Origin: Solirubrobacterales bacterium | GTDB taxonomy: Bacteria; Actinomycetota; Thermoleophilia; Solirubrobacterales; 70-9 | Length of the DNA stretch: 64,000 nt | NCBI GenBank assembly: GCA_035764245.1 | Contig: DASTZP010000004.1 | Coordinates: forward strand, 54,171 to 118,170 | Direction: 5' to 3' | Shown: positions 46,453 to 48,803 of the stretch, in pieces | Layout of the letters: the number at the start of each line of letters is the position of its first letter | Position numbering within the stretch: the first letter of the stretch is position 1 | Translations under genes and position numbers: made by a program | The notes under the pieces: model-generated | What the model saw: only the letters and a program-made list of their open reading frames with translations | Told to the model about the DNA's origin: nothing | Database searches by the model: none

Positions 46453-47670
46453 GTGACTTGGAAGACCAAAGCACGCCTCTTGGCGGGGGAAGCGGTTCTC
46501 GGGTATTTCGAGATAGCCGGCTCGGATGAACCACTCTCGGGGCACCTGCACTGGACGGTGGAGTCGGGGGCGATGATCGAGCTAGTTGATGCGCATTGGC
46601 AGCGGCCAATCAACACGGAACATCTGACGGTGCATGGACTGCTTGAAGAATCGGACCCCATCACTCTTCTGAACGGCATCGTCCGACGGACGACGGTCGA
46701 CCACCGCGTAAAGAGAATCGGGTCCTACACCCTCGCCTTCGGTGAGCACATCAAATCGGACTCGACCTGGGACAGGGCTATATACGTCTCCCGCAATCTC
46801 GCGGAGTGGCGTGGAGTTACCGGCCTAGATCACTCGTTGCCTGACGGTCCCGGCAATCGATTTCGATATCGCATCGACTGGGAGCCCCCGGCGACGGATG
46901 AGGTATCGGTCAAGGGCGCTCGGCTGAAGTTCGCCACTGGCGTGGAGTCGGATGTGGGGCTGATGCCCGCATACACCCTGCGGTCAAAACAGCACGTCAT
47001 TGTCGAGGCTCGCCGGCCACAGCGGCTGGAAGCGTTGTCGCGCAGCTACGCCATGCCCCTGCTGGCACTAACCGCCTTCGCCGCTGACCGACCCGACTCC
47101 ATCATTGAGGAGCACTACAGCCACGGAAAGCGAAAGCAACGCATCGAAGTCTGGCGAGCCGGCACCTCGATGGAGCCCCCGGAATGGCGACACAACGCTC
47201 TCCTTTTCTACGCGGGCGAGCTTCCCGACTTTCGACTGTCGATCGTCCGATGGTGGCGCCTGTACGAGAAGACGCGCCCCGCACTTGGCATTTTCGGCGA
47301 TTACATCAACGAGGGTCTCACCTTCTCGCGCCCACGCCTGATCACGCTCCATACCGCGATCTGCGGGTACACGGATGCTCGCCACGGTCATCGAGATCCG
47401 CGCAAGCTTCGTGCCTACTCGGGAGTGTCCAACGAGATCACGGGATGCTCAAACACCGTTCTCGGTCTGTTCGGCGCAGCCAGGGATTACTTTGCTCATT
47501 TGGGAAGCCCCGGCCAAAAATATTCTGTGACTGAAATTGAAGAAGGCACTCTAAAAGTGACCCGGCGAGCAGCGGCCCTCATGCAAGCGACCCTCTTAGC
47601 GGAGCTTGGATTCACGAAGACGCGAACGTCAGCTCTCCTTCGGCGTCATTACACGAATTGGGCACTCTGA
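46453..47670 (+). CDS. ApeA-like protein: beta-rich N-terminal domain + C-terminal HEPN domain (R-x4-H)
   Basis: GTG start after agaagaggg. The N-terminus LGYFEIAGSDEPLSGHLHWTVESGAMIELVD...TVHGLLEESDPITLLNGIV...LAEWRGVTGL follows the pattern I recall for ApeA N-terminal domains. The helical C-terminus carries R344-DYFA-H349 (47482-47499). Confidence 0.6.
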   Translation: MTWKTKARLLAGEAVLGYFEIAGSDEPLSGHLHWTVESGAMIELVDAHWQRPINTEHLTVHGLLEESDPITLLNGIVRRTTVDHRVKRIGSYTLAFGEHIKSDSTWDRAIYVSRNLAEWRGVTGLDHSLPDGPGNRFRYRIDWEPPATDEVSVKGARLKFATGVESDVGLMPAYTLRSKQHVIVEARRPQRLEALSRSYAMPLLALTAFAADRPDSIIEEHYSHGKRKQRIEVWRAGTSMEPPEWRHNALLFYAGELPDFRLSIVRWWRLYEKTRPALGIFGDYINEGLTFSRPRLITLHTAICGYTDARHGHRDPRKLRAYSGVSNEITGCSNTVLGLFGAARDYFAHLGSPGQKYSVTEIEEGTLKVTRRAAALMQATLLAELGFTKTRTSALLRRHYTNWAL

Positions 47671-47759
47671 GCCCAGTCCCGCTCGCATCGAGCTGCCGCC
47701 TTCCAGCAACCAGCGAGTTTCGTCGCGCTCGGGCCGAACGGTTCGCGTGAGGGTTCGCA

Positions 47760-48803
47760 ATGCTTGGACCGATGGGAAAGCATCGCGACAAAAAGCCAAA
47801 ACAGCAGGCGCCACTTAGCGGTGCTGAGATCGCCGCGCTCAACAGGGCCTTTTACGGCACCGATCCGGCGGAGCACTTCAGCCGTCGTCTGCATCTGCTT
47901 CTGGCGCAGGCGAGCCAAAGCGACGCAGAGCTTCGAGCCGAAGCGAAGGAGTACAAGTTCGGAAAGATTTCGATGACCGTCCCATCGGTCGCCGAGAGCG
48001 AGGCTGACGAAGACGCTCATAAGCGTTTTGTGCTTGTAGAGGCTGAGCTATTTATTCATCACGTAGCCGAGACCTTGATGCGCCTCTATTTTGCCCACTC
48101 GGGCAACGCCCCGGCACCTTGGGTAGAGATGGCCAAGCTTCGGGGACCGGGTGAGTTCACGCGACGACTGAAGGCTTTCCGTAAGGAGCGACAGAAGGAG
48201 AGCGTGTTGAGTCAGATACGGCTCGTCTTCTTTGGTTATAAAGAATTCCCGCCGGAGTGGAGTAAAGAGAAGGTCGCCGAGAACGAAGCCGCTGTTGGGA
48301 GAATCGCAGACTACCTCGACTATTTCTCGGAACTGCTCCTTGAGCGTGGGCAAACCTACAACGCCGTGAAGCACGGGCTGGCCGTCGAAGCGGGAGAGTC
48401 TGCGATTGCAGTCGGCGAGATCAAGGAGCTGTCAGCCAGTGGGCCTTCGATCGCCTACCTCGACCGCGGACGTGATGATGAAAAGAAAAGCTTTTGGGCT
48501 GTAAGGACCCGTTGGATCCCGCTTGAGTTCGACATCACCCTGGCCCACGTTGGCACCCAACTCCTAAATGCACTCTGGACGGTGGCGCGCATCCGCTATG
48601 TGAAATGGCCCATCCCGAAAAATGGTCAGCGCCTGTCGATTCCAACGACGTCGTTAGGAGATGTCAGAAAGGCGGCGACTATGCCGGACATCCAGATTGG
48701 CGAGGTCGCGTTTCCAGCGGAGATGCATTGTCCCCCCGGTGCCGGCGCCGACGCCAAAATTGCACGCCTGAACGAGGAAGCCATGAAGGGCACGGACGGC
48801 TAG
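47760..48803 (+). CDS. hypothetical protein, partner of the ApeA-like gene
   Basis: 347 aa with the same foreign codon usage, 89 nt downstream on the same strand. The basic N-terminus is MGKHRDKKPKQQ. A helical core carries LFIHHVAETLMRLYFAH and YNAVKHGLAV. No family recognised. Confidence 0.65.
   Translation: MLGPMGKHRDKKPKQQAPLSGAEIAALNRAFYGTDPAEHFSRRLHLLLAQASQSDAELRAEAKEYKFGKISMTVPSVAESEADEDAHKRFVLVEAELFIHHVAETLMRLYFAHSGNAPAPWVEMAKLRGPGEFTRRLKAFRKERQKESVLSQIRLVFFGYKEFPPEWSKEKVAENEAAVGRIADYLDYFSELLLERGQTYNAVKHGLAVEAGESAIAVGEIKELSASGPSIAYLDRGRDDEKKSFWAVRTRWIPLEFDITLAHVGTQLLNALWTVARIRYVKWPIPKNGQRLSIPTTSLGDVRKAATMPDIQIGEVAFPAEMHCPPGAGADAKIARLNEEAMKGTDG

Follow-up and report, generated by a model that had tools for sequence, protein, structure and literature searches.

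The analysis of a 64,000-nucleotide stretch of DNA from a Solirubrobacterales bacterium (assembly GCA_035764245.1, contig DASTZP010000004.1, positions 54,171 to 118,170 of the forward strand; hereafter the window) reveals two adjacent genes, an ApeA-like HEPN gene (gene 1, 46453-47670) and a gene of a large unnamed actinobacterial family (gene 2, 47760-48803), whose families are not linked. A sequence-only reading of the same DNA had proposed that the two form an undescribed two-component variant of ApeA; the evidence speaks against this. We favor, with a probability of roughly 0.7, a 3.2-kb islet at tRNA-His that lacks an integrase and carries independent cargo genes rather than a two-component system, in which gene 1 would work alone and gene 2 would be a separate module. 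The two genes would then be adjacent because such a hot spot collects and exchanges both defense and mobile-element cargo. The locus is an ordinary small defense islet, with another member of a known short ApeA class and an unrelated neighbor.

The two open reading frames (ORFs) lie on the forward strand, 89 nt apart, and encode 405 and 347 amino acids, as the sequence-only reading had described, and the motifs that it quoted are located as stated (RDYFAH at residues 344-349, MGKHRDKKPKQQ at 5-16, LFIHHVAETLMRLYFAH at 97-113, and YNAVKHG at 200-206). This same-strand arrangement is limited to islet copies with 87-94% DNA identity that share the same tRNA-His and repeat, namely L018 (94% DNA identity; gene 2, 97%) and L019 (87% DNA identity; gene 2, 89%), each with the ApeA-like gene directly upstream of gene 2. 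Other gene 2 homologues keep different company: three small Cas2-like genes adjoin the homologue in L015-L017 (83%), a PIN_12 gene set stands in gene 1's place in L020 (88%), where an IS256-family transposase also sits in gene 2, and no ApeA gene lies upstream in L001 (54%) or L007 (52%). A one-genome-per-species scan added 23 further gene 2 loci, all in Actinomycetota (Solirubrobacterales, Mycobacterium, Mycolicibacterium, Rhodococcus, and Frankiales) and biased to closer relatives, as the query was the narrower of the alignments. A hidden Markov model (HMM) of the gene 1 family matched nothing at these 23 loci or at 3 plasmid loci, and altogether about 30 gene 2 loci carry no gene 1 relative (L001, L007, L015, L020, L023-L044, and L045-L047), with the exception of L033, which is weighed below.

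The same picture was obtained from the side of gene 1. A gene 2 HMM found no match around the gene 1 homologues of L021 and L048 (both 82% identical to gene 1), L049 (71%), L009 (69%), L011 (53%), L013 (47%), and L050-L053 (37-39%), where the neighbors are unrelated. About nine gene 1 lineages outside the islet (37-82% identity) have no gene 2 relative nearby; of about 10 independent lineages, whose neighbors differ, only that of the window has gene 2. In L011 and L013, the gene directly upstream of the gene 1 homologue encodes ~365 amino acids; the two genes were considered as gene 2 analogues and rejected, being unrelated both to gene 2 and to each other. The sequence-only reading had itself named missing linkage as a finding that would refute its two-component variant, and the neighborhood survey shows no conserved linkage, with the pair confined to near-identical islet copies.

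Observations inside the islet bear on the same question. In L015, gene 1 survives as a frameshifted stub that covers residues 354-404 and lacks the catalytic motif; it lies immediately upstream of an intact gene 2, and gene 2 in this lineage is under purifying selection (ratio of nonsynonymous to synonymous substitution rates, dN/dS, 0.17-0.22). Of the 89-nt spacer between the two genes (47671-47759, forward strand), the ~45 nt next to gene 2, among them a GAGGG that resembles a ribosome-binding site, accompany gene 2; they are kept in L015 and L020 despite the absence of gene 1 there, and in L020 the DNA beyond them is unrelated and the upstream neighbor gene is on the opposite strand. Retention of this segment without gene 1 suggests that gene 2 may bring its own upstream expression signals. 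Moreover, synonymous divergence (dS) is discordant between the two genes: a comparison of the window with L018 gives 0.083 in gene 1 and 0.034 in gene 2, and one with L019 gives 0.238 and 0.414, respectively, which suggests recombination between gene 1 and gene 2 inside the islet.

The islet is foreign DNA at a tRNA-His hot spot, with cargo that differs between relatives. It covers 3.2 kb of low guanine-plus-cytosine (GC) content between tRNA-His (anticodon GTG; 49444-49518, reverse strand; found by ARAGORN and by the Rfam tRNA model at 66.6 bits), which is the integration target and the proximal boundary, and a 50-nt attachment-site-like direct repeat of the 3' part of that tRNA (46206-46255, 92% identical to 49443-49492), which is the distal boundary. 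The earlier description of an islet bounded by tRNA-His repeats therefore holds for the islet and not for two tRNAs, as one end is a complete tRNA and the other a partial copy. The foreign composition of the gene pair was likewise borne out, with GC of 0.56-0.62 over 46.0-49.0 kb against 0.70-0.75 in the flanks, and with third-codon-position GC of 0.69 in gene 1, 0.66 in gene 2, and 0.83 in a 98-amino-acid ORF, against 0.87-0.97 in flanking genes. These three genes are the only cargo, and no integrase is present among them according to ORF calls and Pfam. The third gene (48976-49272, reverse strand) has counterparts of 70-85% amino-acid identity in L018, L019, and L020, is absent from L015, and has no family match in Pfam, PADLOC, or further family libraries; by eye only, it looks like the DUF433-type small proteins.

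The same pairing of repeat and tRNA flanks the homologous islets of L018, L019, and L020, and tRNA-His is found at these three loci and at L015; cargo and left flanks differ among the four. The distal cargo at this site is an ApeA-like gene, a PIN_12 set, or a Cas2-like trio, and gene 2 is the constant tRNA-proximal gene. The islet resembles tRNA-targeted genomic islands in its direct repeat of the tRNA 3' end, its deviating GC, and the variation of its cargo between relatives at the same tRNA-His, and differs from them in having no integrase next to the tRNA and in measuring only 3.2 kb, which makes it either a remnant or an islet mobilized in trans. A consensus scan of the islet for sigma-70 promoters and terminators was empty, the consensus being uninformative for a high-GC actinobacterium, and an Rfam scan matched only the tRNA.

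Gene 1 encodes a protein of the ApeA_NTD1/HEPN_Apea type, in which the invariant R-x4-H motif is intact. Its two domains (ApeA_NTD1 at residues ~15-235 and HEPN_Apea at ~255-405) were delimited using Pfam, PADLOC, the family alignment, and an AlphaFold2 model. The protein matches Pfam ApeA_NTD1 (PF18862) with 27 bits over residues 16-214, above the cut-off of 25.5, and the PADLOC profile PDC-S58, a candidate single-gene system, with 1.3e-15. These matches were further strengthened by the family, a small one of 27 clusters in a search of 5.8 billion proteins, in which 22 of 22 members match ApeA_NTD1 (best E 1.1e-14), HEPN_Apea (PF18739; E ≤ 0.01, best 7.3e-8), and PDC-S58, and 14 of the 22 also match the PADLOC "Cas13-ApeA" models. 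Across the 22-sequence alignment, which reaches down to 31% identity, R344, H349, T370, R371, and R372 are invariant. In the AlphaFold2 model (predicted local distance difference test, pLDDT, 89.8), strands run through residues 15-235 and helices through 260-399, and the motif R344-D-Y-F-A-H349 (codons 47482-47499, forward strand; placed by the alignment and the model) stands at the end of helix 334-349. This position agrees with the HEPN survey, where the catalytic R-x4-6-H lies at the end of helix 3 (PMC3710099). Profile matches, invariant motif, and model therefore place gene 1, by the definition of Pfam, in the ApeA/BMEI1217 HEPN family, and what the sequence-only reading had recognized in it, from the ApeA-like character and the HEPN signature to the beta-rich N-terminus and helical C-terminus, was confirmed.

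The gene evolves under a dN/dS of 0.08-0.14, and no relatives of it were found on plasmids. Searches of PDB chains with its sequence and profile gave no match, and neither did Foldseek with the model against PDB at E ≤ 0.001, the presence of the ApeA cryo-electron microscopy entries in the library copy being unconfirmed. At L009 (3864-7221), a Thoeris-like ThsA_Macro/ThsB_TIR pair adjoins a gene 1 homologue (69%), with a TrwC relaxase within ~6 kb, a setting that supports residence of the ApeA-like family in defense islands or integrative and conjugative elements.

ApeA is reportedly a single-gene anti-phage system that goes back to work by Gao and colleagues in 2020, and gene 1 invites comparison with its characterized members. 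The proteins studied are Ec1-Ec4ApeA and Thr1ApeA (10.64898/2026.01.26.701840) and Ec1ApeA and Ps2ApeA (10.64898/2026.03.20.713152). They are mainly helical proteins of ~600 amino acids with N, Mid, and HEPN domains, whose HEPN dimers build rings of 10 or 12 subunits, and which cut tRNA anticodon loops or phage RNA once a ligand occupies the pocket that lies between the N-terminal domain and HEPN (10.64898/2026.01.26.701840; 10.64898/2026.03.20.713152). They act as a single-protein system in need of no partner (10.64898/2026.01.26.701840). Gene 1 shares with them a C-terminal HEPN_Apea domain with a conserved R-x4-H, an organization as a single gene without a conserved partner, and an occurrence in defense islands. 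It differs from them in its length (405 versus ~600 amino acids), in its motif (RDYFAH versus RNKITH), in the lack of any detectable PDB sequence match or Foldseek match, and in its PADLOC assignment, which is PDC-S58 and not ApeA. Its own family is ApeA/BMEI1217 of the HEPN survey (PMC3710099) together with PDC-S58, in keeping with the 22-of-22 matches given above, although gene 1 is shorter than the 461 positions of the PDC-S58 profile.

Gene 2 belongs to a family that the sequence-only reading could not name, and none of the libraries names it either. None of 48 diverse members matches Pfam, PADLOC, or PHROGs; the window protein has no match in NCBIfam; sequence and profile searches of PDB returned nothing; and no relatives were found in viral contigs. 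A word-indexed search recovered 13 clusters only, whereas an exhaustive profile search of 1.84 billion representatives recovered 864 clusters at E ≤ 0.001, 370 of them at E ≤ 1e-30. The family, seen here in Actinomycetota only, thus holds at least 864 clusters at 50% identity, almost all of them stand-alone proteins of 300-350 amino acids, and its source names read "hypothetical protein" throughout. Since most homologues begin with M-[GAS]-K, at the equivalent of the second ATG (47772), the true start is probably there, which would give a protein of 343 amino acids and a spacer of 101 nt; L020 carries a 1-nt insertion between the two candidate ATGs.

Conservation across the 48 members, which reach down to 24% identity, is concentrated in twelve invariant residues (N28, F31, P36, E104, R108, H113, P120, N201, K204, H205, G206, and G228), with Y32, R43, H100, H101, W121, Y200, W273, and Y280 conserved in at least 90%. 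Two motifs stand out. The first, E104-T-L-M-R108-L-Y-F-A-H113 (codons 48069-48098, forward strand), has the form E-x3-R-x4-H and lies at the end of a long helix, residues 81-114, in the AlphaFold2 model; the second, Y200-N-A-V-K-H-G206 (codons 48357-48377, forward strand), sits where a helix ends, directly ahead of a three-stranded sheet. The earlier statement that gene 2 "lacks the Arg" was mistaken, as R108-L-Y-F-A-H113 lies inside the quoted LFIHHVAETLMRLYFAH and both R108 and H113 are invariant. The model (pLDDT 79; predicted template modeling score 0.75) runs from N-terminal helices and a hairpin through helix 81-114 and further helices to Y200-G206, followed by the sheet (208-252) and a long helix (255-281). 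Foldseek found nothing for it in PDB or BFVD at E ≤ 0.001, a weak test here because Foldseek missed HEPN for gene 1 too. With dN/dS of 0.13-0.34 in gene 2, both genes are under purifying selection.

The invariant E104, R108, and H113, together with N201, K204, and H205, indicate that gene 2 is probably an enzyme. Its similarity to the HEPN superfamily of ribonucleases (RNases) consists in the invariant R-x4-H, which closes a long helix and is followed by a loop, in the acidic E104 one turn earlier, and in Y-N-x2-K-H-G, which resembles R-N-x3-H. It departs from that superfamily at residue 109, which is hydrophobic (L, M, T, or F in the family) where a polar N, D, or H is expected. A comparison with the HEPN family of gene 1 by hhalign gave a probability of 0.7%, its sole local alignment setting RLYFAH on RDYFAH, and a comparison of the N-terminal with the C-terminal half gave no significant sign of an internal duplication. 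Because of the hydrophobic residue after the Arg, the hhalign result, and the missing internal-repeat signal, gene 2 was not filed as HEPN. A tandem HEPN arrangement was rejected on the half-versus-half comparison, and kinship with YaaC was rejected because the comparison with the YaaC-like protein beside the L035 homologue was not significant; tyrosine recombinases, HUH Rep proteins, the PLD "HKD" motif, and the RNase T2 "KHG" motif were dropped by eye, as spacing or secondary structure did not fit. Our best single guess, a doubtful one drawn from the motifs alone, is that gene 2 may be a stand-alone HEPN-like RNase effector or toxin. Somewhat more doubtful is the wider proposal that the whole family may be a new kind of effector or toxin that stands alone, targets RNA, and belongs to mobile elements and defense islands, either a very divergent HEPN with E-x3-R-x4-H and a second, Y-N-x2-K-H-G half-site or a new catalytic fold.

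The genomic surroundings of the gene 2 family are mobile-element and defense or toxin-antitoxin territory, with no fixed partner. Neighbors include PIN_3, PIN_10, ParE, HicA, DUF5615, and YaaC-like genes, as well as SMODS with SAVED, Mrr_cat, Cas2-like genes, and insertion sequence (IS) elements; in L028, a DUF4365-HEAT protein lies upstream of the homologue and a NACHT-like NTPase downstream. Three loci on Rhodococcus and Arthrobacter plasmids place homologues by FtsK/SpoIIIE genes, integrases, and IS elements, a TrwC relaxase lies near the homologue of L001, and in four Solirubrobacteraceae loci a tyrosine integrase and the gene 2 homologue share 4 nt, with the stop codon of the former lying over the start of the latter. 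At many loci, neither an integrase nor a transfer gene lies within 4 kb.

Several individual loci add detail to these surroundings. In Solirubrobacteraceae metagenome-assembled genomes, a 447-amino-acid tyrosine integrase and the gene 2 homologue are tightly packed (L025:4658-9407 and L031:4667-9413; also L029 and L030), and in L025 and L031 an 809-amino-acid protein without a Pfam match joins them, with 4-nt overlaps and 3-nt gaps; this packing suggests an integrative-element module whose genes are coupled in translation. In L015 (4783-5643, reverse strand), the genes in gene 1's place beside the intact gene 2 homologue are three tandem Cas2-like genes of 93-94 amino acids (PF09827, E 3.9e-6 for one). 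In L020 (6395-8828), the IS256-family transposase (PF00872) splits the gene 2 homologue, and residues 14-31 of gene 2 are encoded on both sides of the insertion, a repeat longer than a normal target-site repeat.

These surroundings bring forward the best-surviving rival explanation, which holds that the gene 2 family is a mobile-element factor, controlling integration, excision, replication, or transfer, that gene 2 is the conserved core of the tRNA-His element, and that ApeA is one interchangeable cargo. The overlap with the tyrosine integrase in four loci, the plasmid sites and the nearby relaxase, and the constancy of gene 2 in the tRNA-proximal position as the distal cargo varies between the ApeA-like gene, the PIN_12 set, and the Cas2-like trio all speak for it. 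We nevertheless consider it unlikely, as gene 2 has no similarity to known recombination, replication, or transfer families, the integrase or transfer genes are missing within 4 kb at many loci, viral contigs hold no relatives, and the invariant R-x4-H and N-x2-K-H-G look catalytic and not DNA-binding.

Several observations weigh against the reading of two independent cargo genes or against the assignments on which it draws. For gene 1, the score against Pfam HEPN_Apea is 20 bits, under the curated cut-off of 24.4, a departure from the standard Pfam ApeA_NTD1 plus HEPN_Apea architecture; its N-terminal domain is beta-rich, in contrast to the mainly helical N and Mid domains of the characterized proteins, so that the mechanism of the ~600-amino-acid E. 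coli ApeA can be carried over to gene 1 by analogy only; and the sole mention of PDC-S58 found in the literature lists it as a prediction, with no biochemical, phage, or other experimental data found. For gene 2, none of the 48 members matches a Pfam HEPN model, and the resemblance to HEPN RNases comes with no supported profile or fold similarity. For the pair, the two genes share strand and composition at a spacing of 89 nt, and three islet copies (those of the window, L018, and L019) retain both. In a census of the nearest neighbors of gene 2 homologues, 82 in all, one ApeA_NTD1 protein (E 2.7e-16) also appeared, at L033. There, a distant ApeA_NTD1/HEPN protein of 467 amino acids with the motif RNFLTH (6976-8376) lies 49 nt from a gene 2 homologue of 31% identity (the two spanning 5953-8376), on opposite strands and convergent, with a PIN_3 gene upstream. 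This makes two independent adjacencies of gene 2 and an ApeA-like gene in about 30 loci, a raw count without a background frequency.

The two adjacencies could reflect shared residence in defense islands or a weak affinity, and the repeated placement of gene 2 beside RNase-type toxins (ApeA-like twice, PIN, HicA, and Cas2-like) could reflect a functional affinity. The opposite orientation in L033 and the many loci without an ApeA-like gene argue against an obligate system. A narrower version would be a lineage-specific pair, in which gene 2 was recruited here to regulate the ApeA-like RNase, to serve as its sensor, or to partner it in the manner of an antitoxin, though each family works alone elsewhere. 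It could draw on the close same-strand spacing and the similarly foreign composition, on the joint retention in three islet copies, and on the second, independent co-occurrence in L033. We regard it as improbable, given that each gene is already found without the other at 82-83% identity, that gene 2 of L015 has stayed intact and constrained after the decay of gene 1, that gene 1 relatives have no conserved partner, that the L033 genes face each other on opposite strands, that the characterized ApeA proteins need no partner, and that gene 2 retains its own upstream region. Least probable by far is a decaying remnant, a dead integrative element with one or both ORFs non-functional, since the missing integrase and the decay in related copies (the gene 1 stub of L015 and the IS insertion in gene 2 of L020) are set against two full-length ORFs with all family-invariant residues intact and dN/dS of 0.08-0.34.

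Under the favored reading of an islet with independent cargo genes, the action of gene 1 can be sketched by analogy with characterized ApeA and HEPN proteins. Two copies would dimerize via the C-terminal HEPN domain, and R344 and H349 of each copy would form one composite, metal-independent RNase site. The beta-rich N-terminal domain would hold the enzyme off until an infection-derived cue binds, after which the activated protein would cut tRNA or other RNA, so that phage replication or host growth stops. Gene 2, as a guess, may act as an enzyme in its own right, perhaps on RNA, and travel as part of the mobile-element or defense cargo.

Elsewhere in the window, a second low-GC patch (GC 0.57) at 37630-38889 on the forward strand encodes a Cys-rich protein of 419 amino acids whose N-terminus resembles a signal peptide; this gene, too, was probably acquired horizontally. 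GC dips twice more, to 0.63, at 56001-57000, with a strong AT skew (0.40), and at 63001-64000.

Overall, gene 1 cleanly exemplifies the short ApeA_NTD1/HEPN_Apea class with a beta-rich N-terminus (PDC-S58), a class that is experimentally unexplored in the literature found and that may sense a cue other than that of the ~600-amino-acid E. coli proteins. The locus documents a tRNA-His hot spot that exchanges defense cargo, in the form of an ApeA-like gene, a PIN_12 set, or a Cas2-like trio, among related soil Actinomycetota. The residual interest lies in gene 2, which points to a large unnamed family whose invariant residues look catalytic and whose settings are those of mobile elements and defense. 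It is a reasonable candidate for functional screens, albeit a modest lead.

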